Source of the DNA: Candidatus Thorarchaeota archaeon | Lineage (GTDB): Archaea > Asgardarchaeota > Heimdallarchaeia > Hodarchaeales > Hodarchaeaceae | NCBI GenBank assembly: GCA_048882505.1 | Contig: JBHLRO010000002.1 | Location: 60,001 to 92,000 of the forward strand | Direction of reading: 5' to 3' | DNA: 32,000 bases | Program-made: the position numbers and the translations under genes | Shown here: positions 1,681-17,356 of the stretch, piece after piece | Layout of the letters: each line of letters opens with the position of its first letter | How positions within the stretch are numbered: the first letter of the stretch is position 1 | Notes under the pieces: generated by a model | Database searches by the model: none | The model's input: only the letters and a program-made list of their open reading frames with translations | Told to the model about the DNA's origin: nothing

Positions 1681-2814
1681 ATGGAAGTAGACTACAACTC
1701 GGCCATTGAAGACCATTTGAAAAAAAACAACGTGACATCCGACCGTAAATTAGCACATCTCCAGATTTGTTTGGAACATGATGTGCAGGCTCGGAATGTC
1801 ACGACAGGTTTAGAAGACATCACTCTCATTCATCGGGCCACTACTGACCTCAACCTTGATGAAATCGACCTAGAAACCAAGATATTTGGGAAAAAACTGG
1901 CTTTACCTCTAATTTGTTCGGGAATGACTGGCGGTCACGATTTTGCAAAGAAACTGAATTTGTTTTTATCTCAGGCTGCCCACCAAACACGAATCGGTAT
2001 GGGGGTTGGTAGTCAACGCGCGGCGTTGGAAAAGGCAGATGTTCGAGATTCTTTTGTTGTGGTTCGAGAACAAGCACCTGAAGCCCTAGTCATAGGAAAC
2101 ATTGGGGCAGGCCAGGTTGCGCTGGGTCTAACTGAAGATGAATTCAACAGGATCATTTCCATGGTTCGCGCCACCGCGATTGCCATCCATTTCAATCCCT
2201 TACAAGAAGCCCTCCAACTCGAGGGTGATACTCACCTAGCTAATCTGCATGATAAAGTTGCAAAACTTGTCAAACAAAGCTCTGTTCCTGTAATAGCCAA
2301 AGAGGTGGGAGGAGGATTCAGTCTAAGTGATATTCTTAAAATAAAGAGCATGGGTTTTCAGGCCATTGATATTCAAGGCGTGGGAGGAACTTCATGGCCT
2401 GGAGTGGAATCCATTCGTACTACATCTCCGACCTTGAAAGCTGCAGGAGAGATCTTTTGGGATTGGGGTGTTCCTACCGTTCTGAGTACTATTCTCGCAG
2501 CCAATCATTTTGACGGAATCATCATTGGGTCAGGTGGGGTTCGTAATGGGCTGGATGTAGCGAAATTGCTTGCCTTAGGAGCGGATGCCGCGGGTATGGC
2601 AATTCCATTCTTATTTGCTACCCAACAGCAATCTAGTGAAGCTGTAGTCAATTTCATAATGGATATCGCCTTTCAGCTCCGTCTGGCTTGTTATCTTACC
2701 GGCAGCCAAAACCTCGAAGAATTGAAAACGACTCCTCTTCTTATTTCAGGTGAAACGGCCGAAACTCTTATAAAATATGGGATCGATCCCAAAACTTACC
2801 TTCATCGCCTATAG
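1681..2814 (+). CDS. fni: Type 2 isopentenyl-diphosphate delta-isomerase
   Basis: RKLAH, MTGG, GVGSQR, GNIG, HFNPLQE...EGD, KEVGGG, GGTSW and SGGVRNGLD motifs. ATG 1681 chosen over the ORF-track start at 1654, which overlaps ubiX. Confidence 0.97.
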   Translation: MEVDYNSAIEDHLKKNNVTSDRKLAHLQICLEHDVQARNVTTGLEDITLIHRATTDLNLDEIDLETKIFGKKLALPLICSGMTGGHDFAKKLNLFLSQAAHQTRIGMGVGSQRAALEKADVRDSFVVVREQAPEALVIGNIGAGQVALGLTEDEFNRIISMVRATAIAIHFNPLQEALQLEGDTHLANLHDKVAKLVKQSSVPVIAKEVGGGFSLSDILKIKSMGFQAIDIQGVGGTSWPGVESIRTTSPTLKAAGEIFWDWGVPTVLSTILAANHFDGIIIGSGGVRNGLDVAKLLALGADAAGMAIPFLFATQQQSSEAVVNFIMDIAFQLRLACYLTGSQNLEELKTTPLLISGETAETLIKYGIDPKTYLHRL

Positions 2815-2952
2815 AGTAACTATCAGGATCTTTATCTCGTGACCGTTCTTCAGATATACATCAATGTCAGGTTTTTCTGTTCTCTCAATTTTTCCTTATA
2901 TAAACTGGTGAGAATTGGAATCCATGATAATCCTCTTTTAAAATCCTATTGT

Positions 2953-3200
2953 TTATGATGCGGTTGGTCTGACAGTATAGTAGATTAACCCAAGGATAAA
3001 ACACAGCACACAAACAGCTATTCCATCTAGGATTAATTGTCCCCCCTAAGATCGATATCGGAATTAGAATGAACCCTGAAAGAAGAGACGTAAGCAAAAT
3101 TTTTTCTGCTAATAGGGCTTTTGATGAAATTTTGAAATGTTCGAGAAAAATCCTTGATTCTTTAACCCAAGGAAAGAGAGTGACAATGCCGATGGTGAGA
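2953..3200 (-). pseudogene. 3' fragment of a diverged copy of the ABC permease at 7709-9133
   Basis: Aligns to 7709-7958 (LTIGIVTLFPWVKESRIF...YYTVRPTAS* vs LTIVIITLFLWVKESKVF...YYTMKPTVA*), about 45/82 aa identical by eye, with a 2-nt deletion near 3042. Cut sharply at 3200. Confidence 0.9.
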
Positions 3201-3240
3201 CTTCTCATTTCTGGCGAAACTGCCGATACTCTCACAAAAT
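3201..3240 (+). repeat. Second, truncated copy of the fni 3' end (LLISGETADTLTK*)
   Basis: 33/40 nt identical to 2737-2776; 6 of the 7 differences are at third codon positions. Confidence 0.85.
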
Positions 3241-3336
3241 AAAAACTAATAATATATTACTGGATCTGACGGTAGCAGATTCTCATCTTATCCTTCCTTT
3301 GGACCATTATCGTCAAGATCACGCAGAAACGCACAT

Positions 3337-3522
3337 CTATGGAGCACCATTGTAGATAATAATAGCAGCTGTTAAAAAGAAAAGCAACACGCCACTAGCC
3401 TTGATTACAAAGATAGATGAAATCAAAGCAGCTCCTGCGAGAACCCATTCGATGGGCTTGAGTACTTGTGAAAATTAGACACGTAGTTCTGATAATTCTT
3501 CAAAAATTGAATGCGTACGCAT
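3337..3522 (-). pseudogene. Possible remnant of a small membrane protein
   Basis: MRTHSIFEELSELRV*FSQVLKPIEWVLAGAALISSIFVIKASGVLLFFLTAAIIIYNGAP*: hydrophobic, with an in-frame TAA at 3475-3477. No family recognised. Confidence 0.3.
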
Positions 3523-3591
3523 TTGTTGGTGGAGTTCTTCCTTAAGCTAAGTTTTTGGTATTCTTGCTATGAATTCCTATAACTCTCACGT

Positions 3592-4125
3592 TCACATTTC
3601 GATAACCGTTGTATTCCGCTCCCATCGCCGTAAGCCCGAAGGGCCCTCTGCCATTACACCAACATAGATTGAGATAGAGGGGTGCAACTGGTAAGAGACC
3701 TGAAATCTAATAGTGACTTCATCGTCTATAGCTAGGTTTAGATTCCCCTTATCAATTGTTACTTGAGAGACTTTCTGAATCTCCCCCAAGGTTTGATTAA
3801 ATACGAGGGAACCATTTTCAGCAGTCGTGAATTCCATTAGATCGCCATGATTTTGGATCAACCATAGGTAAACGAATTGGATTTGATATTGATCCCCTGA
3901 TGGCCTGGGATACCCCCCATAACTTAAGAAATAGGAGCGTGCTGTGAAATGCACCGTTCCATTTATATAAACCGCTTCATTTTCGATCCTAATTCCTTGA
4001 TCCGCATGAGGAAGAAGGCTAGTTCTATTTTGGGGGCGAACAAACCCAATTACTAATATTCCTATACCTATCAAGACAAGGATTATAATAAAGCCGAGGA
4101 GAATCCTTTTGTGCTGGACTCTTAT
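3592..4125 (-). CDS. Membrane-anchored, probably N-glycosylated surface protein of unknown function (canonical start missing)
   Basis: Frame extends 17 codons upstream of the ORF-track TTG start to an ATA (IRVQHKRILLGFIIILVLIGIGILVIGF = basic residues plus a signal anchor). Five N-X-S/T sequons (NRT, NGT, NGS, NQT, NTT). Confidence 0.6.
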   Translation of the reverse strand: MRVQHKRILLGFIIILVLIGIGILVIGFVRPQNRTSLLPHADQGIRIENEAVYINGTVHFTARSYFLSYGGYPRPSGDQYQIQFVYLWLIQNHGDLMEFTTAENGSLVFNQTLGEIQKVSQVTIDKGNLNLAIDDEVTIRFQVSYQLHPSISIYVGVMAEGPSGLRRWERNTTVIEM

Positions 4126-4157
4126 CTACTCCTATGATTTGTTATTAGATTCTTTTG

Positions 4158-4868
4158 TCATAATAACCCGCCTGTGGGGATCTGTGAGACTTTAATGTTG
4201 TCCCAATAAGCATAGCCATAGTTGCCCGAAGACCAACCACCACGAAAACCTATTGCTATGGGGCCACTCATGTAACTATAACCATAAGCGAATGGGCCTC
4301 CCAATGTGATCAAAGGCGAAGTATATTGTGAGTATTCTGCTTTTCGTGACACGTACATCCCTAAATACCAGGAATAGTAATAGATATAGGTAAAAATCTC
4401 TATTTCTACTTGCTGCCAGTCGTAACACCACCAACCGGTATGACTATAAACATTCTCTTCGTAAAGCTTTGTTGTTGTACCCTGATACCTCCGATAAACC
4501 TGTAAATACTTATAATAGAGTCTTACCTGGATGTAGTTATTACTATCCTGTAACACAGGATAGAAATCATGATATGCATACGTATATGAATTTGAGCGTC
4601 GAGTATAATAGGAATAGTACCTACCGTATCCGTTGTCGCTTTTGACTGGTTGATTTCCAATCGCATTCCAGTAATAAAGGACTTGCTTGTCCCCTGACGT
4701 ATCTTGCATATATAGTCTGCCGCGATCGGTTCCAGATGGATATGGGGACGGGCCTGTATGGGAAACAACATCGAATCTTGGCGATGATGCCTGTGTTAAA
4801 TAATGGAGGGACCACCCATTGACATTATTATCTTCAAAATCATCTTCCGTAGCATAGGAAATTGCTTC
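4158..4868 (-). pseudogene. C-terminal Tyr-rich beta-sandwich (ConA/LamG/DUF1080-like) part of the S8 protein, in frame after a single TAG
   Basis: Reads EAISYATEDDFEDNNVNGWS...GRLYMQDTSGDKQ... with no stop and joins ORF 4158-4709, ending GPIAIGF...YAYWDNIKV. DDFE...GW and W-DNI-V are typical borders of this fold (fold call is inference). Confidence 0.7.
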
Positions 4869-6167
4869 CTATGCATCCGTAATACCATGACCATAATAAT
4901 TATTCTGTCTAGAATACGTTGCATCGTAGTCGTAACTGGATGTGTCCTGACCACCAGGGTCACAATGGTATTTAATCAAATCTACTACGGTAGATCTAGA
5001 GGGTTTAGAGCCTCTAATGTTCTTTAACGTTTGGTAAACTTGCGCAGCTTGACCGGCAACTATTGGCGTGGAAAAACTAGTTCCTGATTTATCAGAATAC
5101 CCCCCGCCTTCTGATGGAGTATAAACTGGGTTTCCTGGAGAGGTAACGTCAAGATCGGGACCATATCCCGACCAACTAGGTCTTATACCTTCATCTGGTT
5201 CGTCACGGGTATTTACCGCTCCAACTGACATTACATTACTCAATTTTGCTGGATAATATATGATAGGACCCCCATCGTTCCCTGATCCTGCAATGAAGAC
5301 CGTTGTTCCATCGGCGAGTAAATCGTTTATGGGATCATCCCATCCAGAATAATGAGAAGGTTCACCCCAAGAAGCACTGATTATATCAGGATCGTGTCCC
5401 CAGGCATGTAACAATTCAAGCCCCCAAGCACTTGCCACCTCATCTATAGTGGTTCCAAAATCATTGAAATCGACCCATACTAAGTCAACGTAAGGAGCCA
5501 TCTTCAATAATGCCCCTGTTACTGGTGTTCCATGATTACTCCCATCATAGATACCGACCTTAAAATCCGGATCGTGTGAATAATCACTATATGTGGTCCA
5601 TTCACTTTCTGTGTTGATGTAGGTATTGGATGCTTCATAAGCATATTGCCAGTAACCAAATGGCCAGATTCCAACATAGTACTTATACCAATTAATGTCA
5701 ATGTACCACATATGACGCAAGGTCTCATCAGGTTTTCGTTTTATATCGTCGTGTGGGTAAACTCCACATCCTGTGAGGGCCACCGTTACACCTTCTCCAT
5801 AACGAGGCATGCTTATCATATCTAACCAATTTTGACTTCGATCATAATTAACCATTTGGTATGCCTTGACTCCTGAACTCATTAACTGTATTTTTGACTC
5901 ATTTCCTTCATTATCCTTCCTAACCACTATTTTTGCATAACTCTGATTTATTTCCGATGAGATTATTTTTGCCCGAGAAAATCTATTCGGATCTTTTGCA
6001 AGAACAGATTCAAAATCAGAACTGTTTCCAGAAAGAAGTGTTGTTGAAGCGTTATTCTCAAATGAAATGTCATTCTTACTCACATAAGGTGTTTCCAAGT
6101 AAGATGCCGCAATACTTATTTGGAAAAGCAGGATAAGAATGCACCCTACTATGGGTTTCCGATTCAT
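4869..6167 (-). CDS. Secreted subtilisin-like (S8) protease domain, ending at an in-frame TAG; catalytic Asp position is Gly
   Basis: Signal peptide MNRKPIVGCILILLFQISIAAS (ATG 6167); His motif NHGTPVTG, oxyanion GSGNDG, Ser motif SGTSFSTPIVAG, and C-terminal YGHGITDA. Confidence 0.88.
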   Translation of the reverse strand: MNRKPIVGCILILLFQISIAASYLETPYVSKNDISFENNASTTLLSGNSSDFESVLAKDPNRFSRAKIISSEINQSYAKIVVRKDNEGNESKIQLMSSGVKAYQMVNYDRSQNWLDMISMPRYGEGVTVALTGCGVYPHDDIKRKPDETLRHMWYIDINWYKYYVGIWPFGYWQYAYEASNTYINTESEWTTYSDYSHDPDFKVGIYDGSNHGTPVTGALLKMAPYVDLVWVDFNDFGTTIDEVASAWGLELLHAWGHDPDIISASWGEPSHYSGWDDPINDLLADGTTVFIAGSGNDGGPIIYYPAKLSNVMSVGAVNTRDEPDEGIRPSWSGYGPDLDVTSPGNPVYTPSEGGGYSDKSGTSFSTPIVAGQAAQVYQTLKNIRGSKPSRSTVVDLIKYHCDPGGQDTSSYDYDATYSRQNNYYGHGITDA

Positions 6168-6531
6168 TCGTTTATTGAAAAATCCTCCATTCTGGCTCCC
6201 ACAAATAATATGGAACTCTTTCTTCATTCAGTTACCTCCTTTAACCCTGTTGAATTGGCTTACTAAAGGACAAGACGTTGGCCTGATCGAGGAATCGTAT
6301 TTCTTAACCCAAATGAGTAGATTCAGGTATTAAAGGCATTGTAAGCGATTTTAGAACGTGAGATGCTTCGTAAGGACATTCAATGTTGATAAAATTCTAA
6401 AATCTCACGTTATCAAGAAACATTTCTCAAAGTATGTGATCGATCTAATTGCTGCGAATATGGTAGGAACAATAGTTGTATCTTAAGATGGTGAGATTTT
6501 TATACCCTAATTCCCTAAACGTCTTGAAGAT

Positions 6532-6798
6532 ATGAAAGGAATTAAAGTATACATTGACCCAAAGATTGAAGAAGAATTTCGAAAAACAGCAATGAAAATA
6601 TTTGGTTATGGAAAAGGATCTTTGAGTAAAGCAGCGGAGCAAGCCTTCAAGAAATGGATTCAAGAATATTCGAGTAACTTGGAAACATTAAGCATTCCAG
6701 ATGATCCAATTTATGAAATCAGAGGACAACTAGAAGGGATAACTCTCACATCTGTAGAACTCCAACATAAAGCAAAGGAATATCGTGTCGGAAAATAG
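6532..6798 (+). CDS. vapB: Antitoxin, CopG/ribbon-helix-helix-like (VapB type)
   Basis: 88 aa with an N-terminal beta-helix-helix pattern (IKVYIDPKIEEEFRKTA...SLSKAAEQAFKKW); directly upstream of a PIN gene. Confidence 0.75.
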   Translation: MKGIKVYIDPKIEEEFRKTAMKIFGYGKGSLSKAAEQAFKKWIQEYSSNLETLSIPDDPIYEIRGQLEGITLTSVELQHKAKEYRVGK

Positions 6799-6817
6799 TA
6801 GGTTGTCGGGAGTAATT

Positions 6818-7219
6818 ATGTTAATTGATGCAAACATATTCTTGGAAGTACAACTCAATCAAGAAAAAGCACAAGAAGCATCGGAAATATTAGAAGCAGT
6901 TTCTAATAATATCATCCAAGGGTATATCACTGATTTTACAATTGATTCAATTGTAATCATTATGGAACATTATAACAAATCACCAGCTGAAATAAAACGA
7001 TTCCTTGTCTCCTTACTTGCTTATGAAGCTCTAGATTTCTATCAGCTATCTATTTTCGACAAAATTAAGGCAACCGAGTATATGAGCTCAATACCGCTTG
7101 ATTTTGATGATGCCTGCATGTATCAAGCCATGCAGGTACTGAAAATCGATATACTTGCTTCCTTCGATAATGATTTTGATAGAATTCCTAATATAAGACG
7201 GTTAGAATCAGTGCCATGA
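6818..7219 (+). CDS. vapC: PIN-domain ribonuclease toxin
   Basis: MLIDANIFLE, LDFDDA and SFDNDFD acidic PIN motifs; intact frame. Confidence 0.9.
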   Translation: MLIDANIFLEVQLNQEKAQEASEILEAVSNNIIQGYITDFTIDSIVIIMEHYNKSPAEIKRFLVSLLAYEALDFYQLSIFDKIKATEYMSSIPLDFDDACMYQAMQVLKIDILASFDNDFDRIPNIRRLESVP

Positions 7220-7257
7220 TTTCTATCCACTACTTCTCTACTTCGTCAAAGGGTGAT

Positions 7258-7477
7258 ATTACAAGGTAATTCTTGAAAAGGAGCCGACGGGAGGATATAT
7301 CGCGATCTGCCCCTCATTTCAAGGGTGTTATAGTCAAGGAGAGATTATTGAGGACGCGTTAGATAACATTAAAGAAGCCATCGAGCTTTGTATTGTGGAT
7401 CTAAAAGTCAGGGGGTACCTATCCCCGATTCTAACCACTTTTTTGTGGGGAGTGTGGTCATTCTTCATGAATCCTAA
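7258..7477 (+). pseudogene. hicB: HicB-family antitoxin pseudogene (start codon lost, frameshift)
   Basis: YKVILEKEPTGGYIAICPSFQGCYSQGEIIEDALDNIKEAIELC is canonical HicB. GGTGAT-AT-TAC suggests a 1-nt loss from ATG. A frameshift in the G5 run at 7411-7415 restores RGVPIPDSNHFFVGSVVILHES*. Missed by the ORF track. Confidence 0.88.
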
Positions 7478-7596
7478 GCTTCTCGAATTTCGGGAAAAAA
7501 CACAATAACAGCTTTTGTAAAGCTAGGATATTTTTCCATCAGACAACGAGGGAGCCATGTTAGGTTACGACATCCAACAGATTCAGCAAGAAGACC
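7467..7596 (+). pseudogene. hicA: HicA-family mRNA interferase pseudogene (frameshifted, 3'-truncated)
   Basis: MNPKLLE/SGKNTITAFVKLGYFSIRQRGSHVRLRHP carries the GSH motif. Frameshift near 7487; cut off exactly where the fni copy at 7597 begins. Confidence 0.85.
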
Positions 7597-7674
7597 CTCC
7601 TCATTTCTGGGAAAACCGCAGAAACTCTCAAAAAATATGGAATCGATCCAACATCTTACCTTGATCGCAAGTAA
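7597..7674 (+). pseudogene. Displaced complete 3' end of fni (third copy; LLISGKTAETLKKYGIDPTSYLDRK*)
   Basis: Same 78-nt length as 2737-2814; 60/78 nt and 19/25 aa identical; ends at the homologous stop codon. Confidence 0.92.
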
Positions 7675-7708
7675 CACGACTAAAGGAACGCGCGAATGAG
7701 GGTACGTT

Positions 7709-9133
7709 TTATGCTACGGTTGGTTTCATGGTGTAATAGACCATCCCAAAAACAAAACAGAACATGTAAACACCTAGACCCCCCAAAAACACTATTCCAC
7801 CTCCTAAGATCCCAATAGGAACTAGAATGCATCCTGCTAGGACAAAAGAAAGCGCCATTTTTTCTGTCACTAAGGCCTTGAAGGAGATTTTGCAATTCAC
7901 AAGAAAGACCTTTGATTCTTTAACCCAAAGGAAGAGTGTAATAATGACGATGGTGAGAATTCCAACAGGGGTGAACCAGGGAAGGATATTAACAGCTAAC
8001 ACAAACCAGAAAACGAAAATTATGCCATAAACCAGCATGATGAGGGTATAATTTAAGGAAATACGGTATTTGTCCAACATGAGCAGGTCTTTGTGGAGAA
8101 GACTTACCACCTCATGGATGAATTGACTTTCGTATTGCAGAAAGTTAAACCATGAGGCTCTTCCTTGAAAAAAAGAAGTGAAAATGTAATAGCCAGTTAA
8201 AGCAAGTTCGATGTCCACCGAAAACGCATCGTGCAGGGGTTGCCTCTCATATAATCGGGCTAATGGGTCGATTTTCCCGTGAATAAGAAAGAAAAGTCCG
8301 AGAGTTACACCCCATTCGAGGATTAAGGTAATCGTGGTAGGAACCAGGTAGGTTTGAGACCAGGTCTTAGAAAGCGCCGCTAAGACTAGATAAATGATAT
8401 TGAACGGGGGGAGATACCACCAGTTCAAGATAATCTGTTCTAGGAGTGAAGAATTTATATTCTCAGATGTAGAGATGAAAACTAAGCCGCCTAAAATGAC
8501 AATTACACCAATCAAAGCCATTGCATTGTTAAGGAGAGAGAAGTTCTGTTCTCGCCATCTTGGTCTTAATTGTTCTAGCAGCTCCTCTGTAAAAGTGTAA
8601 ACAAACGTTCCCAGTAACATGAATAGCTGGATCCCCAAATATAGAGTGATAAGTACAAGTATTATGTTTGGCCAAGGGATTTGGGATCTAATCGCATACG
8701 ATATGACTGTGAAAGCCAAGAAGAATACATATAGCAGCACTTTGAGCGAATTTCGGAAGAATCCAATAAGAGCCCACGAGATGGGATCGTTCGATGTCTG
8801 GGATAGAATATTTAGATCCGTCTTATCAAAATGATAGGGGTTTGTCGCAAATAACGCCTCTTTCCCTGGAACAACAAAGGCACTACCAGCCAAGATCATC
8901 ATACCAAAAGTTAATACAAATAGACTGAGAATGACATGGGCCCGAGGGTTGGTATAGAGAAATAAAGGATAGTAGTGTCCCAATGTAGCTACAAAGAAAG
9001 AACAAATCAGAACTACTGCGTAAAATAAAAGGGACAATTTTGGGATTGAATCCCATGGTTTTTGGAGCTTCTTCCATTCGAGCCAGATAAACTGGGCAAG
9101 CAATCTGCGCTTACTAATCTTCTTCCGCTTCAT
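7709..9133 (-). CDS. ABC exporter permease (multi-pass membrane protein)
   Basis: About 474 aa with many hydrophobic segments; start overlaps the end of the ABC ATPase gene. Confidence 0.8.
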   Translation of the reverse strand: MKRKKISKRRLLAQFIWLEWKKLQKPWDSIPKLSLLFYAVVLICSFFVATLGHYYPLFLYTNPRAHVILSLFVLTFGMMILAGSAFVVPGKEALFATNPYHFDKTDLNILSQTSNDPISWALIGFFRNSLKVLLYVFFLAFTVISYAIRSQIPWPNIILVLITLYLGIQLFMLLGTFVYTFTEELLEQLRPRWREQNFSLLNNAMALIGVIVILGGLVFISTSENINSSLLEQIILNWWYLPPFNIIYLVLAALSKTWSQTYLVPTTITLILEWGVTLGLFFLIHGKIDPLARLYERQPLHDAFSVDIELALTGYYIFTSFFQGRASWFNFLQYESQFIHEVVSLLHKDLLMLDKYRISLNYTLIMLVYGIIFVFWFVLAVNILPWFTPVGILTIVIITLFLWVKESKVFLVNCKISFKALVTEKMALSFVLAGCILVPIGILGGGIVFLGGLGVYMFCFVFGMVYYTMKPTVA

Positions 9134-9917
9134 TATGCCAAGCCTCCAAAACAAACGATTCAAATGGTTTCGCTTTAGTTCGATCCTGTTTTATCTCTTC
9201 AATAGTCCCCTGCCAAACTATTTCCCCTGAATGAAGGAGAGCTACCTGAGTACATAATTCCTCTATATCGGTGAGAATATGTGAAGCAATGATGATCGAC
9301 CCTGGGATGGTTATATCTAGTTCTGGAATTCCTCGAAAGATGAATTCTTTGAGAAGTTTTTTGGTTTTTTTTCGGATTTTCACATCTAAATTGGAGAATG
9401 GCTCATCTAGAACTAGGATTTCAGGTTGGTGAATCAAAGCAGTACATAACATCAATTTTTGGAAATTTCCTGTAGAAAGATGTTTGACCAGAGTTTCGGT
9501 CCAGTTTTCTAGCTCAAAGAATTGCGAAAGATACTGGGAATACTGCTCGTAACCTTGTTCCTTCACTGCAAATAGCTTGCAGAGGAACTGAAGATATTCC
9601 TCCACAGTCAAAAATGGATAAATTTCCAGGGATTCTGGTACGTACCCAATTCTCGGTCGAATCTCTCGAAGGCCTGCTGATATTTTCCCATTTGTGACCA
9701 CCCTACGACCAAGGAGGTCGATATTTCCCTGTTGAATATTCACGAATCCCATTAAGCATCGAAATAATGTGGTTTTCCCAGCTCCATTTGGCCCGACGAC
9801 CCCTAGACACTCCTGGCTTTCTAGATTTAAATTCAGATTTTTAAGGACGCCCACGTTTCCATAGCTTTTAGTCAAATCATCAACACTTATTTGGTATTTG
9901 ATTTGTGTTGATACCAT
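9114..9917 (-). CDS. ABC transporter ATP-binding protein (CcmA/ABC-2 type)
   Basis: Walker A GPNGAGKTT, signature LSTGNFQK, Walker B ILVLDEP, H-loop ASHIL. Start uncertain (ATG 9917 or 9947). Confidence 0.93.
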   Translation of the reverse strand: MVSTQIKYQISVDDLTKSYGNVGVLKNLNLNLESQECLGVVGPNGAGKTTLFRCLMGFVNIQQGNIDLLGRRVVTNGKISAGLREIRPRIGYVPESLEIYPFLTVEEYLQFLCKLFAVKEQGYEQYSQYLSQFFELENWTETLVKHLSTGNFQKLMLCTALIHQPEILVLDEPFSNLDVKIRKKTKKLLKEFIFRGIPELDITIPGSIIIASHILTDIEELCTQVALLHSGEIVWQGTIEEIKQDRTKAKPFESFVLEAWHNEAEED

Positions 9918-10886
9918 AGAATTGAGCGGTGAATTACGCGATGACATTGAGGTACTCTCAAAGATGAGGTGGTAAGCGATGCGACATCCTTCTTGATCAG
10001 ATGTAGTGAAACTTAGTATTAGTGCCCTATTTAATATTTGGTATTGTGGAATCACTATATTTTAATCAATTCTGGGCGACTACCAGGTCAGAAGGTTCCG
10101 AGGTTGAAAAGCGTTACTGATTTTAGAGAATCCTTTTTCTATCTATGTGGATTTCGTTCTTTTTTATCATTTTTAGTACCAATTTCCATCTAGTTGGATT
10201 TATGGATAGGATTTCAAATACTGTAAATGTAACAGCCATATTCCTCCCTGGAGGATTAATCCTAGCCATTTACGGATGATGCACCCCGACACGGGGCTCT
10301 TTCTGCTTGACATCAGGATTATCCAAGTAGCAACAGGCATCACGAGCAGGACGCACTCCAAACGGCTGCTCCATACCTATCGAATCGAACGGGAGTATCC
10401 TGCAGTTTTTCTGCAGTTCGATACACCTCCGTCAACACCACGATTCCACCGATAATCCCCTAATCCAAGCTTTTCAGTGGTATGATCGCACCGCCGCTAG
10501 TATGACACGGAACATTCGATCCCCCAGAAACAATCGGTACACGTGGGAAGCGAAAGGAACACTAGATTTTAAAGCCCTAACTCATGAACTAGAACAAGTA
10601 GAAGACAACATCTGGAGATTATATCAGCACAATTATCAGTCAAAAGAGTTACACCAATTAAATGAAAGCCTAAATCATGGTCATTCCTCGCTCCGGTACC
10701 ATCTCCTCCTCATAGTCAATCTCATAGTGCAAGACTATCTTAGGGGACACCTCTAAATGGCATTGTACGTTTCAAGACAGGATTCCGTTGTTTTACTGAT
10801 GATACGAGAAGGCGTGGAAGTAAAATGCTCAAGGTTTCTGCTTAAGCCCCCTATCCAAAAGAGTTTTGGGGCATCCTTAAGACACA

Positions 10887-10900
10887 CGAAAATATATTAT
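10887..10900 (+). promoter_or_regulatory. Putative BRE/TATA box for the rpl7ae operon
   Basis: CGAAAATATATTAT about 90 nt upstream of the L7Ae ATG; position only. Confidence 0.4.
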
Positions 10901-10948
10901 TAGGCGACAAAGGCGGGTGACTCGCCCGACATTCACCGACCAAGGATT

Positions 10949-10978
10949 GGGTATGATTATTCGTTGGTAATAAGACCC
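10949..10978 (+). promoter_or_regulatory. Kink-turn in the rpl7ae 5' leader (putative autoregulatory L7Ae site)
   Basis: GGG-UAU-GA-UUAUU-cguuggu-AAUAA-GA-CCC: 3-bp C stem, 3-nt bulge, tandem G.A/A.G, 5-bp NC stem. Abuts the GGAGG Shine-Dalgarno at 10980-10984. Confidence 0.8.
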
Positions 10979-10991
10979 TGGAGGTCGTTAT

Positions 10992-11369
10992 ATGAGTAAA
11001 CCGTTTTATGTAAATTATGAACAGCCAGATGGTCTCGAAAGCGATGCTTTAGAGATTCTTGAAACCGTGAGTAGTGACGCCGTAAACATTCGGAAAGGTA
11101 CAAACGAAACTACTAAGAGTATAGAACGTGGCCTGGCCAAACTAGTCTTTATTGCCCTAGATGTTGAACCCCCAGAGATCGTGGCACATTTACCTTTGCT
11201 CTGTAAGGATAAGAAAATCGCCTATCTCTATGTAATTTCTAAAGAAGTCCTGGGAAATGCCTGCAATCTAGGGATCAAGACAGCTAGCTGTGCGATAGTT
11301 GGCGAAGGAGAACTAAAAGCAAGGATTGATACTCTTGCGGCTCGTATCCATGAGCTTGCTGGAATTTAA
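10992..11369 (+). CDS. rpl7ae: Ribosomal protein L7Ae (k-turn binding protein)
   Basis: IRKGTNETTKSIERG.AKLVFIA.DV.PPEIVAHLPLLC signature. Confidence 0.98.
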   Translation: MSKPFYVNYEQPDGLESDALEILETVSSDAVNIRKGTNETTKSIERGLAKLVFIALDVEPPEIVAHLPLLCKDKKIAYLYVISKEVLGNACNLGIKTASCAIVGEGELKARIDTLAARIHELAGI

Positions 11370-11411
11370 TCACTAAGATTATTAAATATAAAATAAATCG
11401 GAGGAACCTGA

Positions 11412-11627
11412 ATGAGCGATGAGAATATTTCTATTCCTGCTGAGGTGCTACAGATCATTGGCAGGACTGGAGTTACTGGCGAGATTACCCAGGTTCGTGT
11501 CCGAGTTCTAGAAGGACGTGATCGTGGTCGCATTATAGTACGGAATGTTAAGGGGCCCGTACGAAAAGATGATATCCTTATGCTTAGAGAAACTGAGCGT
11601 GAAGCCCGTAATCTAAAACGGCCCTAG
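11412..11627 (+). CDS. rps28e: Ribosomal protein S28e
   Basis: [38 protein letters not shown]. Confidence 0.98.
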
Positions 11628-11688
11628 CCGCCCAAGGTTAGGTTCAAACACATGTTACATCAAGAAGAATTGTAGAATGTGAACAATC

Positions 11689-11886
11689 ATGGTTCGTCTC
11701 TTTGAATGCAGCTATTGTGGACATCAAATTGATCCGGGAACTGGGATCTCCTTTGTTCGTAGGAATGGCCAGGTAGCTAGATTCTGCAGCCGTAAATGTC
11801 GTCGTTCATTGTTGGATTTTGCACGTGATCCTAGAAAGTTCAAGTGGACAAAGAAATATGTCCCCAAAATAAAGGTCGATAGCTAA
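11689..11886 (+). CDS. rpl24e: Ribosomal protein L24e
   Basis: CSYCG.QIDPGTG...FCSRKC...PRKFKWT. Confidence 0.98.
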   Translation: MVRLFECSYCGHQIDPGTGISFVRRNGQVARFCSRKCRRSLLDFARDPRKFKWTKKYVPKIKVDS

Positions 11887-11889
11887 AAA

Positions 11890-11932
11890 AAGCCTACATA
11901 GATCTCAAAATGGGAGGAAATTATGTAGGCTT
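11890..11932. terminator. Hairpin between convergent rpl24e and slyD (possible terminator or processing signal)
   Basis: Perfect 11-bp inverted repeat AAGCCTACATA/TATGTAGGCTT with a 21-nt loop. Confidence 0.45.
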
Positions 11933-11985
11933 GCTTCTTTAAACCAGGTTTTACCGTATGCTGGTCGATCTGAGGAGACCGCAAC

Positions 11986-12765
11986 CTAGGATTCCTCTAA
12001 TTCTTCGGTGGCCTCTCCACCAATATCCTCATTTGATTCTGATGTCTCGGGTGTTTCCTCAGATTCTACTTTTTCTTGATAGTCAAAAAGCTCACTAAAC
12101 CTAACCTGTTTAAAATCGAGGTAATCACGAAGTTCTGTAGCAAGGGAATACTTGGCAATTCCTAAACCTTCCATAAAGATGACATAACTTGGAAGAGTAA
12201 TGGTAATGTTCCGGGGATCCTCGGCAGTCTCAATTGTAATATCATCAATGTTAATTCCAGCAAGCCGCCTTCCAATGATTTCTTTTTGGATGGCCGTTTC
12301 GTCTTCTAATTGCTCTATTACTGTGACTTCAAAGATCAGATTTTTACCGGCCAGTGGATGGTTAAAATCGATACGAGACCGCCCTCCTCCGACCCAAATT
12401 ATGGTTCCACTACGCCCTGCCAGCTGAACGTGTCTGCCAACCTGGGGAGTAATATTGGCTTTACGAAGACGTCTTGTAGGAACCATCTCAATCTTACTTG
12501 TATCGCGCTCCCCATATCCCTCCGCCATTGGTACCTCGATAGATTGGGGAGAATTCAGATCCAAACCGACAAGAGCTTTAGCAAGCCCAGGGATAAGAAA
12601 TTTCTCATCTCCAGCTCTGCAAATCATTGGATTATATGTCCGTTTGTCATCGAAAATGCCTTCTGCTCGGGCAACTTCCTCCAATGTTGTATCAAATACT
12701 TTTGAATCTTCCTTTAGACGACCAGTATAGTTAATCTTTATCCAATCGTTTTCTGAAATTGTCAT
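11986..12765 (-). CDS. slyD: Long-type archaeal FKBP peptidyl-prolyl isomerase/chaperone
   Basis: INYTGRL...VFDTT, LIPGL, YGERD, DFNHPLAGKNL.F, extra C-terminal domain and acidic tail. Confidence 0.95.
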   Translation of the reverse strand: MTISENDWIKINYTGRLKEDSKVFDTTLEEVARAEGIFDDKRTYNPMICRAGDEKFLIPGLAKALVGLDLNSPQSIEVPMAEGYGERDTSKIEMVPTRRLRKANITPQVGRHVQLAGRSGTIIWVGGGRSRIDFNHPLAGKNLIFEVTVIEQLEDETAIQKEIIGRRLAGINIDDITIETAEDPRNITITLPSYVIFMEGLGIAKYSLATELRDYLDFKQVRFSELFDYQEKVESEETPETSESNEDIGGEATEELEES

Positions 12766-12806
12766 TATTTTGTCCCTGCTCTAATTAGATAATCTCTTCT
12801 TGTGAC

Positions 12807-13268
12807 TTAATCTGAGATACGATCCGCTGTTACCAGTTTCAATTGATACCCCTGCGCACATTCAACGGGATCCTTAGAGATCGAAACAATCTGAAGCTTC
12901 TCGCCCTCGGAGAGATAGGATGGTTTACAATGGTGTTGGTAGTGGGGACATTCGATGAGATCACATACCCGTGGTGTGAAAGCAAAAGTGGCCCCTTCAA
13001 CTGCTAACTTTACCCCTGTAGTTACATGATAGGAGGGTTCAAAGATTTCTACCGTTTGAACCCCTTCCTCAAAAACCGCGCATGAATGGACAGTCTCTTT
13101 GACACTAGCCACTTCAAAGATCCTTCCCTCTTCAAGTTTCAAACATGCTCCACGAAGTCTACATTCACTGCAACTATCGGTTTCTCCGAGGAAAAGGAAT
13201 TGGTTCCCTGGCTTAGATTGTCTAACGCCTAGTAAGGTAATCTTCGTCGGTTTGTCTACACTTGTCAT
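12807..13268 (-). CDS. UPF0179 family protein
   Basis: KITLLG...G..F.F.G....C..C.LR..C..LEEGR.FEV..V....H.C pattern, followed by a second Cys cluster. Confidence 0.85.
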   Translation of the reverse strand: MTSVDKPTKITLLGVRQSKPGNQFLFLGETDSCSECRLRGACLKLEEGRIFEVASVKETVHSCAVFEEGVQTVEIFEPSYHVTTGVKLAVEGATFAFTPRVCDLIECPHYQHHCKPSYLSEGEKLQIVSISKDPVECAQGYQLKLVTADRISD

Positions 13269-13404
13269 ATGGTGGAGCCCCAGGTTATTACAGTCTGCCC
13301 GCTTATATTGAAAGCCAAGGCTAGTGAGGCGACTTCTTTGGGGTTACTTAACATTTTGTCCCAAAATTCCCTTACGATTTAGGTAAAAAGCGGCCCCAAA
13401 GCTC

Positions 13405-13965
13405 CTAGTCACCAAAATAGCTTTGTGCCACGGTGCGGAAATCTTCGGCATTATGACATTGGACGTAATCTTTCAATAATTCAGCATTCATAATCCAGAA
13501 TTGGTTTCCCCATTTAAACACAGATAACAGGTCAGTTGCCATACCTATTGAACCAAACAAGTATAAAGCCGCGGCAAGTGCCTCAGCACTAGATAGCTTC
13601 TCGGGTCTACCGTAATTGACAGGATTGGCCGCTATTAATAACGGAAGTTTTCGTGAATTCGTATAGTGTTTTTCAAAGATTTCCTCTGCTTGTTTCCAGG
13701 AGCAATCTAGCACAGTTAACCCTGACCGTTCAAAAATGTCTACATCTTGAGATGTCAGAAAATTGGGCGCCATCGGGTTGAGGATTATGGAAAAACGTGG
13801 AATATGAGGAAAACGCCGTACTAAATTCAATGTTTTGATGTTCTGGAATCGTCCTTGCCTATAGAAATGCCAAAGCTTGGTTCCTGTACATTTTTTTGGA
13901 TCGCATTGGTTGGCATGAAAAATAGTGATTGAACATGAGCCCTTATTGTTCATAATAATATTCAC
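13405..13965 (-). CDS. tsr3: SSU rRNA aminocarboxypropyltransferase Tsr3
   Basis: QCDPKKCTG.KL, LDCSWK, LPLLIAANPVNYGRP.KLSSAEALAAAL, FKWG..F..MN. Overlaps the ABCE1 3' end. Confidence 0.96.
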   Translation of the reverse strand: MNIIMNNKGSCSITIFHANQCDPKKCTGTKLWHFYRQGRFQNIKTLNLVRRFPHIPRFSIILNPMAPNFLTSQDVDIFERSGLTVLDCSWKQAEEIFEKHYTNSRKLPLLIAANPVNYGRPEKLSSAEALAAALYLFGSIGMATDLLSVFKWGNQFWIMNAELLKDYVQCHNAEDFRTVAQSYFGD

Positions 13966-15802
13966 CCTGGGTCTTTTGTTGTCGGTCTAGTTTGGAATCA
14001 AGCTTATTGACCCGGGGACGTCCTGTTTTTAAGTCACGACGAAATGTTATTTTGATATTTCCCAAAAATCGATTCATGCCTGACCTTACGGCTGAGGGGG
14101 GGTACGCTCGCCCATACTCGCCAGGAGTCCCCAAAAACACGATAATGCGATCACTGGCATAGTCCTGAAAGATTATATCATGTTCCACGATGAACGCAGC
14201 CGCATTTCGGTTTTGAATTACCCTGCGTATCAATTTGGCGGTTGTTAGCCTGTCTTCTATTGACAGAAATGCTGAAGGTTCATCAAAGAGGTATAGATCC
14301 GCATCGGTTCCTAATGTCGCTACAATCGCCACTTTCTGCATTTCCCCACCACTCAGCTGTACAATGGGTTGCTCAAGTATATTTGGTAAATTAAATGGCT
14401 GAAGAATCTCACTTCGAAATTGGGAGGTTGTAACTATGCCGCCACTATATTGAGCTAGAAACTCTTCAACAGTTAGTTCTGTATCAAGAGTACTGGCCAC
14501 GTATTGAGGTTTATAAGCAACACGAAGTTTTGTGTTCTGATTTTCTTCTTCTTCCTCCTTTACTTCCTGGCCTTTTCTGGTTAAGGTGACTCGATCAACG
14601 GTTCCCGAGCTTGGGGATTCTAATCCAGCCAGTATTTTAATGAAGGTCGTTTTTCCGATTCCATTTGGCCCCAGTATACCAATAATTTCGTTTTGATGGA
14701 TCGTCCCACCTCGTACATCAAGTGAAAACCCACTTTGGTCATATTTCTTTGATAAATCCTGATATGTTAACAAGGCTTTGGAGACAATTTGTTTCTCTCT
14801 TACCGATGATTTTTTGATCTTTATCGAATATTCCCGAAATCTCATATTCTCTGAGGGTATGAATCCATCCAAAAAGACATTAATTCCCTCCTTTTCCGTG
14901 TAAGGTTGCGATACAATTCCATATGACGCAGGAGTTCCATAGAAAGTGGTAACATAGTCAGACAAGTAGTCCAAGACGGCTAAATCGTGCTCTACCACGA
15001 CCACTGTCTTATTCACGTCTAATAATCCTCGGATTACCCTTGCCACTCTAAGACGTTCATGAATATCTAAGAATGAAGTTGGTTCATCGAACAGGTACAT
15101 ATCTCCCTCTCTAGCCATGGTCACAGCAATTGCGAGTTTCTGCAATTCTCCGCCAGAAAGCACACTCACATCACGCTCCCAGATTTTTTGAAGTCCTAGG
15201 GACTCTTTAAGATCGGCCAATACATCACGCTCATTGAAACGTGTCAAAATTTCACGAACCGTACCTTTCACATGTTTGGGTATCGTTTCAATGTATTGGG
15301 GTTTACGGATGCATCCGGTCTTGCCTTCAACCATGTTTTGAAAATGATTCTGCAACTCTGTCCCCTTATAATAATCTCGTACTTTATCCCAAGTAGGTTC
15401 CTCCTCGACCATCCCAAAATTCGGAATAATGTCTCCTGATATAATTTTTATAGCCGTACTTTTACCCGTTCCGTTTTGGCCCACCAAACCGTTGACCTTT
15501 CCAGGTTTGATCATAGGAAGTCGGAAAAGTGAGAAACCGCTTCTCCCAAAACGATGGGTCATCTCCTTATCTAGACGTTCAGGCGTATTCACGACCGAAA
15601 GTGCAAGAAAACGACAGCCCTTTCTCGTTGTACAAAGCCCACATCCCGTGCAAAACTGCTCATGAATGATTGGTTGGGTTACGCCACGAATCTCAAATTC
15701 AATCATTTGCGTCCCAGATCGAACAACTGGACATATCGTCATACATTCCTGGACACATCGCTTTGGTTTACATTTATCTGAGTCTAAGACAACGATTCTC
15801 AT
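13943..15802 (-). CDS. rli1: Ribosome recycling ATPase ABCE1/Rli1
   Basis: N-terminal 2x[4Fe-4S] Cys pattern, two NBDs (GQNGTGKST, GPNGIGKTT, LSGGE, FDEP), and terminal TFRRD...GRPRVNK. ATG 15802 preferred; an in-frame ATG also exists at 15898. Confidence 0.98.
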   Translation of the reverse strand: MRIVVLDSDKCKPKRCVQECMTICPVVRSGTQMIEFEIRGVTQPIIHEQFCTGCGLCTTRKGCRFLALSVVNTPERLDKEMTHRFGRSGFSLFRLPMIKPGKVNGLVGQNGTGKSTAIKIISGDIIPNFGMVEEEPTWDKVRDYYKGTELQNHFQNMVEGKTGCIRKPQYIETIPKHVKGTVREILTRFNERDVLADLKESLGLQKIWERDVSVLSGGELQKLAIAVTMAREGDMYLFDEPTSFLDIHERLRVARVIRGLLDVNKTVVVVEHDLAVLDYLSDYVTTFYGTPASYGIVSQPYTEKEGINVFLDGFIPSENMRFREYSIKIKKSSVREKQIVSKALLTYQDLSKKYDQSGFSLDVRGGTIHQNEIIGILGPNGIGKTTFIKILAGLESPSSGTVDRVTLTRKGQEVKEEEEENQNTKLRVAYKPQYVASTLDTELTVEEFLAQYSGGIVTTSQFRSEILQPFNLPNILEQPIVQLSGGEMQKVAIVATLGTDADLYLFDEPSAFLSIEDRLTTAKLIRRVIQNRNAAAFIVEHDIIFQDYASDRIIVFLGTPGEYGRAYPPSAVRSGMNRFLGNIKITFRRDLKTGRPRVNKLDSKLDRQQKTQGEYYYEQ

Positions 15803-15998
15803 TTTAATACAACATTTTGTAAGTTTGTGTGGAACTCCACTGTGATCATATTCAGTGTAAAATCTTGTTTTTGCGCCGTACAGTACGGCGACTCTCATGT
15901 CGTTTAATTCAGGGTGGGTTTAGAAAGATTTGTATGCAAAGACGATAATATTGCGTATAACTCGAAAAGTTCAAAAGGGAAAATAGTCAATGTTTCTC

Positions 15999-16374
15999 AG
16001 AGCACCGGAGCAGAAGTCTGACTTCCGGGTCGTTTGGACGACCTGAGGAAATTCCGGCCATTCATCTCTGCTGAACAGTTGGTAAGAACCTCCATGAGGC
16101 CTTATTGCTGTCAACCGAGAGGTTGGGCGCTGCTACAGAAACGACACGTCCCTGTTCATACGGCAATGATGGAGTGAAACCCATGGTGACATGAGGTGAG
16201 TTAATCTCCTGAGGACGAATAGGGGACCGATGAAACGAGCATCCTCAGTGAATGCAAGCAAAATTGGGGCCTTTGAGACCCTGATAAAAAGCGCGTAGGG
16301 TGATGTCAGAAACTCCCGTGGGGTAACCCAAAAGGAGTGAACAGAAGCCGGATTACTCTTTGGAACGGTGCTCT
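15999..16374 (+). ncRNA. rnpB: RNase P RNA (archaeal, type A-like)
   Basis: P1 AGAGCACCG/CGGTGCTCT; P2 CTGAC/GTCAG; P3 GGTCGT-ttgg-ACGACC; CR-I GAGGAAATTCCGGC pairing with CR-V AACAGAAGCCGGATTA (P4); P5 ATTCA/TGAAT; P6 TCTC/GAGA; P9 CAACC-GAGA-GGTTG; GCTACAGAAA and GATGAAACG conserved regions. Confidence 0.95.
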
Positions 16375-16475
16375 TCTCTTTCTTTCATAAGTCCTTGCTA
16401 TTTTAAGGCTAATCTCAATGATTATATGTATATCCAAAGAGATTCCAATCAAATTTTCCTTCAGTTCTGAGATTC

Positions 16476-17006
16476 TTAGGTTTTTCGGACGTACTGAAGC
16501 TCAACTACTCCTGTAGGATAATCAACGATTTTCATAAGTTTTAATGGAACTTCAATGTCTTGAGGAACGAATAAGGGGATTCCCTTCCCTAAAAGATGCG
16601 GGACAATATAGATTCTGTATCGATCAATCAGGTTCTGCTTGATAAAAGCCTCTATAAGTGCTCCTCCTCCTACTAGCCATATATTCTTTCCGTCTTCCTG
16701 CTTTAATTGAGGTACAAATTCATTGATCGGTGTATTGACGAACACAACGTTATCATCTTGACCATCTTTGGTTCGAGAAAAGACATAACACTTTTTGCCT
16801 TGGTAGGGAAATCTTGCATTTCTACTTAAAATTTGGTCGTAAGTTTTGCGTCCCATCAGGACGGTGCTAACATTCGAAAAAAATCCCGTAAAACCGTATC
16901 CTTCATCTCCGGGTGGTAACCAATCAACCTTACTTTGTATGTTAGCAACGTAACCATCTAAACTTGTCGCAATGTATAGGACAACTTCTCTTGGCATTTC
17001 ACTCAC
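16476..17006 (-). CDS. Dihydrofolate reductase-like protein (RibD C-terminal domain family)
   Basis: LYIATSLDGYVA, VLMGRKTYD, IWLVGGG.LI, LLGKGIPLF. Confidence 0.92.
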   Translation of the reverse strand: MSEMPREVVLYIATSLDGYVANIQSKVDWLPPGDEGYGFTGFFSNVSTVLMGRKTYDQILSRNARFPYQGKKCYVFSRTKDGQDDNVVFVNTPINEFVPQLKQEDGKNIWLVGGGALIEAFIKQNLIDRYRIYIVPHLLGKGIPLFVPQDIEVPLKLMKIVDYPTGVVELQYVRKT

Positions 17007-17356
17007 ATCTTACGTAAAAAAAAGACTCTTTCTCTTAATCTGCGCTCAAATTGCATTAATCCAATTCAGTACATTTGAAGGTTGTTAATTAGGGGCCCCT
17101 CCATCCTTAGGATGCAACGTATGAGCCCTGGTTTTACTCGTTCAACCTGTGAATATTGTAACATGCTTGATTTAAAAAATAATGAGGTAACCAAATCGTA
17201 ATCGTTCAGTTTCAAGACTTATATCACATATGGGGCCAAGAAACGCGATCAGGAGTCGTGTCAGAACTTTTCTAGTGAAGACTTTGCTAGGATAGAACAA
17301 ATGCCTTTATCCGTTGAAAGATTTAAATATGGGAGATATCTATATGAAAGGAATGA

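Follow-up and report, generated by a model that had tools for sequence, protein, structure and literature searches.

Behind fni, the gene of type 2 isopentenyl-diphosphate isomerase (IDI), a Hodarchaeales archaeon carries a real, decaying stack of foreign segments that were apparently laid down successively at codon 352 of the gene, each of them starting with an fni tail. The locus lies in the window G000:C2:60001-92000, that is, the whole stretch of 32,000 nucleotides (nt) analysed here, and coordinates are window positions unless a contig label is given. G000 is the source metagenome-assembled genome (MAG; 4.3 Mb, 83 contigs, 3.7% contamination), in which the locus is situated 60 kb from the end of a 452-kb contig. 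As an explanation it is tentatively proposed, at somewhat less than an even chance, that fni was recurrently broken at one point, repaired by copying a foreign fni allele, and then closed by end-joining. The observations comprise the anatomy of the locus, a signature of selection in the tails, the joints, the mosaic structure of the fni gene, the absence of a recombinase from the genes searched, and a like joint in a second species.

The fni tails and their joints

The features of the locus are listed from left to right, with strand where one applies and the supporting evidence in parentheses.

1681-2814, + strand: fni, type 2 isopentenyl-diphosphate isomerase, intact, 377 aa (Pfam FMN_dh, E 8e-20; PDB 2zru IDI2, E 1.5e-74)
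1770-1800 (codon ~40): mosaic breakpoint within fni relative to G016, the nearest relative (2 mismatches in 1616-1799, then 10 in 1800-1829)
2737-2814, + strand: tail A, the working last 25 codons and stop of fni, LLISGETAETLIKYGIDPKTYLHRL (alignments)
2815-2955: spacer A (138 nt), then the stop of the permease fragment (alignment; tblastn similarity reaching to 2956)
2956-3200, - strand: perm'A, ~82 codons of a permease 3' end, with a frameshift near 3040 and a cut at 3200 (tblastn, two frames)
3201-3241, + strand: tail C, 13 codons then TAA, LLISGETADTLTK, abutting perm'A directly (33/40 to A and to B)
3242-6466, - strand: cargo, composed of 350 nt without assigned feature, a membrane-anchored open reading frame (ORF) of 160 aa (3592-4074) and an S8 subtilase (4158-6227) (Pfam Peptidase_S8, E 2.4e-25)
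6467-7235, + strand: vapBC-type toxin-antitoxin cassette with sharp ends, antitoxin at 6532-6798 and PIN toxin at 6785-7219 (Pfam PIN, E 5e-10)
7257-7596, + strand: hicB-hicA remnant, hicB without its first ~7 codons, hicA (ATG at 7467) frameshifted and cut at 7596 after ...DSARRP (Pfam)
7597-7674, + strand: tail B, 25 codons and stop, LLISGKTAETLKKYGIDPTSYLDRK, outside any gene (60/78 to A)
7709-10055, - strand: full permease (7709-9163) and ABC ATPase (9114-10055), a xenologous operon (Pfam ABC_tran, E 4e-27)
10056-10422: right-hand end of the variable region, synteny being back at 10423 inside a cut 245-aa ORF (blastn, ORF comparison)
10992-11369, + strand: L7Ae, the ancestral right-hand neighbour of fni (L7Ae-S28e-L24e order in relatives)

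The three fni ends were found exactly at the positions and with the match counts given in an initial annotation of the window: tails A and B agree at 60 of 78 nt, and tail C agrees with each of them at 33 of 40, a match with a chance probability of ~1e-11 per position (our own binomial estimate). Across the stretch covered by C, A and B agree at 31 of 40, so that the copies are about equally distant from one another, as had also been described. Differences between the tails are mainly synonymous (ratio of non-synonymous to synonymous differences, pN/pS, of 0.15-0.27; binomial P=0.003 for A-B and 0.018 for A-C). This significant synonymous excess indicates that the tails diverged as coding ends elsewhere and not by decay in place, and it supports the earlier view that they evolved as working fni ends in separate lineages. 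Exact matches between tails are short, the longest being 7 nt (A-C), 9 nt (A-B) and 11 nt (B-C), with 17 nt between the larger blocks described below.

The common point from which the displaced tails start is codon 352, the first Leu of LLISG. The start of tail B is placed within 0-2 nt (a shared CC) and that of tail C within 0-4 nt (similarity to the permease continues to 3204). The statement that all three copies begin at the same base of this Leu codon thus stands for B and C; tail A is continuous with the fni gene and has no visible boundary. As a group, tails A, C and B are closest to the tail of G016 (71-81%), other genus members being at ~62-68%, and B in particular matches the G016 tail at 61/78 (77-78%) and the tail of the JGI contig L066 at 67/78. 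The first 17 nt at the site are common to B, G016 and L066. A and C differ there and have in addition a unique Lys-to-Glu replacement: among ~22 tails, Glu at tail residue 6 is present only in these two, all others having Lys or Arg. No fourth fni tail was detected at the right edge of the stack (10040-10520), where alignment scores were at the level of shuffled sequences.

Homologues of fni in Hodarchaeales MAGs (under the names Hodarchaeales, Heimdallarchaeota or Promethearchaeota) are annotated as type 2 IDI. The alignment of fni to the Thermus IDI2 (1vcf) stops near query residue 348, and the tail lies beyond this point, so swaps of the tail may be tolerated by the enzyme.

Immediately to the left of the two displaced tails, the DNA is unrelated and belongs to genes cut mid-way, in agreement with the initial annotation. 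The partner of tail C is a frameshifted permease fragment on the minus strand (2956-3200), which in two frames translates into a match with the C-terminal part of the full permease at 43-52% aa identity. Nucleotide identity of the permease part is 74% (3042-3204 versus 7800-7962), and the first 4 nt of tail C are still covered by the similarity to the full permease. No such similarity was found past 3242 (score 14, versus 12 +/- 1.3 for shuffles), which rules out tail C as a patch within a longer permease remnant. A and B are accordingly parts of a diverged duplicate of a whole convergent junction, made of tail, spacer and permease 3' end (2737-3200 versus 7597-7962), in which the spacer measures 138 nt in the A copy and 34 nt in the B copy. 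Since perm'A has the same orientation as in the B copy, unit A would be a contiguous piece of the fni-permease neighbourhood of a donor.

The partner of tail B is a fragment of HicA (HicA_toxin PF07927, E 7.5e-7; the preceding gene matches HicB_lk_antitox, E 3.5e-7), the full-length form of which goes on with ...RRPL(T/I)VPL... in G012 and G002. At the joint, hicA reads AGACCTCTTATT where fni has ACTCCTCTTCTTATT, with an overlap of 2-3 nt and a CCTCTT/ATT resemblance; because the two genes resemble each other at this point, the joint of the hicA remnant (hicA') with tail B sits in microhomology. Taken together, the joints have a microhomology of 2-4 nt and left partners that are genes broken mid-way (perm'A at 3200, hicA' at 7596), which fits illegitimate end-joining better than the arm of an att site. 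Palindromic or inverted microhomology, for which the joints were inspected by eye, is unproven. Counted rightwards from the fni break point, the units are 0.46 kb, 4.4 kb and at least 2.8 kb long, and they end mid-gene.

The DNA between tails C and B is composite and decaying. In its cargo, the S8 protease ORF (4872-6227) and a Tyr-rich C-terminal ORF (4158-4868) form one frame of ~690 codons with a single in-frame TAG (4869-4871, minus strand), which is either a recent nonsense mutation or a site of read-through. For this cargo block, paralogues are present on contigs C45, C52 and C59. The vapBC cassette (promoter and two genes) is found at 86-87% nt identity in five species (G020, G001, G019, G009 and G018; L069-L073), whose fni and core genes are ~65% identical; hence it has recently moved between species as a discrete unit. 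In G001 and G020 the cassette is bracketed by a conserved ~43-nt site (AACTCCGTCAAA-GGCTGGTTTAGATTAGAAAAGGATATA) repeated in direct orientation every 0.6-1 kb (L070:1399, 2361 and 3008, from G001:C22; L069:114 and 757, from G020:C20), an arrangement that resembles an array of the integron type. An integron-like cassette array was rejected for the window, as the conserved site between cassettes is absent: 0 copies were found in it at up to 3 mismatches, and only one in G000 as a whole (C17:30445, minus strand) at up to 6 mismatches.

The mosaic gene and the locus in related genomes

Comparison with G016 indicates that more than the end of fni may be of foreign origin. The two genomes are 95-100% identical through ubiX and as far as 120 nt into fni; past 1770-1800 the identity drops to ~78% and holds at this level to the stop codon. 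Downstream of fni, G016 contains different DNA, a metalloprotease island that is also present behind fni in L066; a Pfam search of the G016 island ORFs and of the small window ORFs returned no families. Synteny resumes at 10423 (window 10423-17281 versus G016:C58:2402-9295, 90%, blastn), inside a 245-aa ORF (ORF245) that lies upstream of L7Ae in G016 (L039 1998-2735) and is cut at 10423 in G000, where its last 84 codons are left (10502-10756). From the break at 1770-1800 and the return of synteny only at 10423, it follows that the whole of 1800-10422 is non-collinear with G016. Two earlier proposals are not borne out by these data. The first is that of an imported C-terminus, as the mosaic break is found at codon ~40 and not at 2737. 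The second is that of tail B as the displaced original end, as it adjoins a foreign ABC-permease operon and is only 77-78% identical to the G016 tail despite the 95-100% identity of the left flank. The G016 assembly itself breaks within fni, the end of C100 and the start of C58 (L040, L039) overlapping by 77 nt; several fni alleles may be present in that population.

The permease-ABC operon beside tail B is, as judged from its relatives, an import too, and the native operon has been deleted. The closest homologue of the permease (62%) is located between SecY and alcohol dehydrogenase in the G016 assembly. At the corresponding SecY-Zn alcohol dehydrogenase locus, G000 has kept only the last ~30 codons of the native permease (C6:74006-74111), with ~78% nt identity to the full permease of G016 at the same place. 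This C6 piece had been considered as another fni-linked scar, which was rejected in favour of a native remnant.

In 10 of the 18 genus genomes and in 7 further lineages (~17 lineages), L7Ae-S28e-L24e begins 130-170 nt past fni, and this direct succession of fni and L7Ae is the ancestral state, with the site empty. An empty site could thus be documented, as the initial annotation had suggested looking for, in this form; an empty fni-permease junction, the form expected there, was not found. The upstream side of the gene varies as well, some lineages (L082, L083, L085 and L086) having extra small ORFs that separate it from ubiX. Separate 'islands' considered behind fni in G011, G009, G017 and G007 were rejected, as they correspond to a shared conserved gene block.

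The fni-L7Ae gap also hosts other sequences in relatives. In one close relative (a Logan contig of P0003), fni and L7Ae are separated by a full-length TnpB (IS605 OrfB/Cas12f-like), and TnpB-like N-terminal fragments occur in the gap of L053 (4821-5324), L054 (6277-6780), L056 (6189-6677) and L048 (2254-2772). TnpB was rejected as the agent in G000, there being no TnpB trace in this island.

A second species, G011, contains a spare fni tail joined to a copy of L7Ae (C3:10747-10886, or L053 8195-8334 as oriented). The tail is a frameshifted remnant of 62-64 nt, 73-76% identical to the tails of other species (E 2.7e-5 against the best, G008), and it adjoins, without a gap, a 75-nt copy (88-89% identical) of the leader and first 14 codons of L7Ae. 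This fusion is located 1.3 kb upstream of the real L7Ae, in a contig of 257 kb, and its fni homology begins 8 nt 3' of the point used in G000. Three joints with three different left partners hence fall within ~10 nt of a 1134-nt gene, with a probability of ~1e-4 under uniform breakpoints by our estimate, and in 2 of the 3 the left partner is a piece of normal fni-downstream DNA. The independent G011 tail, 8 nt away, argues that the fni 3' end is a preferred joint and not a chance duplication. The earlier description of fni as an integration hotspot is therefore upheld as to the hotspot, which is real given the coincident joints; its reading as an attB for an integrase is not supported, no recombinase having been found.

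Such tails are rare. In 18 genus genomes, the 15 kb behind fni yielded no extra tails with A and B as queries, and with the tail of each genome as its own query only that of G011 was real; weak matches in G001 and G013 (LLNTSTIEPSEYFSRP) were rejected after failing at the DNA level. With spare tails in only 2 of ~30 lineages, fni is used as a landing point only occasionally. Scanning metagenomes with the fni protein retrieved no relatives, and a degenerate 33-nt tail pattern matched no metagenome contig and no viral contig, while among genome contigs it matched G016 alone.

Possible origins of the stack

No recombinase domain was detected by Pfam in the named ORFs of the island, the short ORFs in the remaining stretches being only read by eye. 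G000 contains one PF00589 gene only, on contig C5 (C5:211534), a Xer-like gene that all genus members share; the genome-wide search did not extend to serine recombinase families. Across 21 genus genomes, none of the 48 PF00589 matches is beside fni, so that the recombinase-linked version of the locus foreseen in the initial annotation was not recovered, and no circular, element-borne or recombinase-linked tail copy was found in the viral, metagenome and genome collections scanned. Endonuclease ORFs (LAGLIDADG, GIY-YIG, HNH, PD-(D/E)xK) were likewise absent from the named ORFs of this island and of the G016 island (Pfam; other small ORFs by eye).

Under the explanation by break, copy and join, fni would have been broken at or beside codon 352 by an agent acting at a fixed place, for which a site-specific nuclease or a fragile sequence are candidates. 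The left end would have invaded a diverged fni allele carried by incoming DNA of a related archaeon, and copying would have proceeded rightwards through the donor tail and over a variable distance of the DNA downstream of the donor fni. The new strand would then have been joined by microhomology to the right-hand broken end of the recipient, by which the resident tail was pushed downstream. As to the order of events and the donors, a first round may have joined tail C and cargo ending mid-hicA to the resident tail B, and a second round tail A, spacer and part of the donor permease to the then resident tail C. The process would correspond to homology-facilitated illegitimate recombination (C-terminal displacement) acting on a housekeeping gene.

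With such a sequence of steps, the displaced tails would share a start, their left partners would be broken and joined through microhomology, fni would have its mosaic break on the left, and no recombinase would be needed. Its far ends cut genes (perm'A at 3200, hicA at 7596, L7Ae at codon 14 in G011, and ORF245 at 10423), and the displaced 3' parts are stacked downstream in the same orientation, with no dedicated recombinase found. The conserved anchor gene has a mosaic breakpoint, and the sharpness of this break at 1770-1800 is as expected for a homologous left crossover or a co-conversion tract. As the joint partners are recognisable, the predictions of copy-and-join after a break and of site-specific integration can be tested against each other.

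Several points weigh against this explanation. Displacement would be expected to produce scattered joints, which were not seen, two being within 0-4 nt and the third at +8 nt; coincident joints are not predicted by plain illegitimate joining, so an extra site-specific factor is needed, and no nuclease gene was found by Pfam in the named ORFs of the cargo. Tail C has only 13 codons, which implies that the first donor had a short tail or that C was damaged later. Identity values do not single out A or B as the tail cognate with the gene body: compared with relatives with 78-80% identity in the body, A is at 68-71% and B at 77-85%, tails normally being 5.6 +/- 5.2 points below bodies (190 gene pairs). 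Furthermore, the fni distances among G000, G016 and L066 are nearly the same and do not tell whether G000 or G016 is the recombinant. No donor or intermediate genome was present in the collections searched.

Site-specific integration, by an integrase acting in trans, is considered unlikely, though it is a serious rival and explains the fixed site directly. LLISG would be the attB core for a tyrosine or serine recombinase encoded elsewhere or lost; unit C (3201-7596) would be an integrated element with a 40-nt fni-like attP, B the displaced resident tail, and unit A (2737-3200) a piece of flanking DNA of a previous host, captured there through aberrant excision in the manner of specialised transduction and integrated again. 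Direct repeats of the fni 3' end, all on the plus strand, do bracket the inserted DNA, the left boundaries of the displaced tails coincide and that of G011 nearly so, and an imperfect inverted repeat, TTTCTG-N9-CAGAAA, is present in the tails of B, G016 and L066. By reasoning, a circle (tail C-cargo-hicA'-O-tail A-spacer-perm'A) inserting by its internal site gives perm'A/tail C ... hicA'/tail B, which reproduces the topology as well as copy-and-join does. Tandem arrays in bacteria are known to include members without an integrase. The results set against integration are the recombinase searches above (none in the island, a single Xer-like PF00589 gene in the genome, none beside fni in 21 genomes, and neither a circular nor a recombinase-linked form among the viral, metagenome and genome collections) and the structure of the locus: no identical attL/attR core is shared by the tails, the longest exact match being 7-11 nt, which could also reflect age; the supposed attP arms are broken genes with joint microhomology (a permease, and hicA in a cassette cut at both ends); and the mosaic break at codon ~40 is left unexplained.

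Self-comparison of G000 revealed several arrays of diverged direct repeats, two of which bear on these questions. The smc array (C7:4293-12366) contains 5 copies of the last ~27 codons (~84 nt), which have the same start base within 2 nt, unrelated left flanks, and all end at the stop. The tfb array (C11:49980-64953) contains 7 copies of the tfb end and ~150 nt downstream, 130-220 nt long including downstream hairpins. In both, the spare ends separate blocks of 1-5 kb with ordinary genes as cargo. The boundaries of the smc array are as sharp as those at fni, which favours integration; the sites behind smc, tfb and fni have no common motif, and one trans-acting enzyme is therefore unlikely. More repeat arrays were noted on C10, C14, C31 and C37. 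It is conceivable, though doubtful, that Hodarchaeales gain genes in this manner lineage-wide without a cis-encoded recombinase, housekeeping genes (fni, smc, tfb) being hit at a fixed 3' codon and a replacement tail copied in, with an undiscovered family of site-specific nucleases or recombinases as the driver. The process would be seen most clearly at fni, because there every joint partner is identifiable as a piece of the donor fni neighbourhood.

Homologous recombination alone is a distinctly improbable origin. Circles with the fni-permease junction and cargo would be integrated by host recombination within this homology, duplicating the junction, and the left boundary would go back to one founding capture. 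No recombinase is needed, the tfb array repeats a similar unit of gene end and downstream DNA, and because the duplicated unit contains the ends of both convergent genes, neither would be broken by integration at any place inside it. The copies are only 74-77% identical, however, too diverged for efficient recombination unless the events are old, and tail C offers only 40 nt of homology. Different left partners (perm'A, hicA' and a third in G011) stand directly at the boundary, from which it follows that new joints were made repeatedly and not inherited, and the copies of the smc array already show unrelated left flanks.

Finally, a chimeric contig or a tandem duplication in place that later decayed has a very small probability: the 83-contig MAG with 3.7% contamination and the assembly break of G016 in fni (77-nt overlap), suggestive of population heterogeneity, would allow it, but the joints have no shared sequence to mis-join on, exact repeats of 7-17 nt are far below assembler k-mers, which makes a k-mer chimera unlikely, the locus is 60 kb inside a 452-kb contig, the synonymous excess rules out decay in place, and G011 is an independent example in a 257-kb contig.

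Comparison with known systems

No closer relatives of eukaryotes are known than the Asgard archaea, whose gene exchange is poorly understood. At the present locus, a core isoprenoid-lipid gene is a repeated landing point for foreign DNA with no integrase found, and the anchor gene is a mosaic of alleles ~20% apart between flanks that are 95-100% identical, which matters for phylogenies based on such genes. In the published Asgard surveys searched, tRNA-targeting elements, aloposons, proviruses and Tn7-like elements are described, and no stacks of spare tails behind protein genes were encountered.

Integration in a protein-coding gene with a replacement 3' end is known from e14 and phage 21 in icd of Escherichia coli. 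The likeness lies in a synonymously diverged working tail and a displaced tail at the far border; these elements have an integrase next to attP and an identical attB core, whereas fni has neither and its 'arms' are broken genes. In fungal mitochondria, homing-endonuclease ORFs create a C-terminal duplication of the gene that they invade. In both situations a conserved gene would be cut at one fixed place and mended with a donor allele that supplies a new tail, the old one staying behind as a pseudo-end, and synonymous changes surround the site, but the fni cargo contains no endonuclease ORF of a known family (Pfam) and consists of several kb of ordinary genes. Cleavage at the duplication boundary, with a donor tail made immune by synonymous changes, is at most hinted at by the first 17 nt of the site, where A and C differ from B, G016 and L066, and by the Glu of A and C. 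In Firmicutes, integrative elements and integrase-less cis-mobilisable elements accumulate in tandem at gene 3' ends, giving, as here, a row of att-like repeats behind one gene with some units lacking an integrase; that accretion depends on the integrase of a neighbouring element and on near-identical att sites, none of which were found in G000.

The closest likeness to break, copy and join is offered by displacement arrays (Rhs, CdiA-CT orphans and the effector-immunity loci of the Vibrio type VI secretion system; PMC5361080). In the Vibrio and Rhs loci, sequential displacement has been ascribed to homology-facilitated illegitimate recombination (PMC5361080). As at fni, incoming DNA is anchored by homology in a conserved gene, whose 3' part it replaces and pushes downstream in the same orientation; no dedicated recombinase is involved, the upstream gene shows mosaicism, and joining is illegitimate (PMC5361080). 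In those arrays the exchanged parts are variable toxin tips, and immunity genes are retained, under diversifying selection (PMC5361080). At fni, by contrast, it is the conserved tail of a housekeeping enzyme that is exchanged, the cargo (a protease, toxin-antitoxin pairs and a transporter) bears no relation to it, the host belongs to the Asgard archaea, and the joints lie within a few bases of one another.

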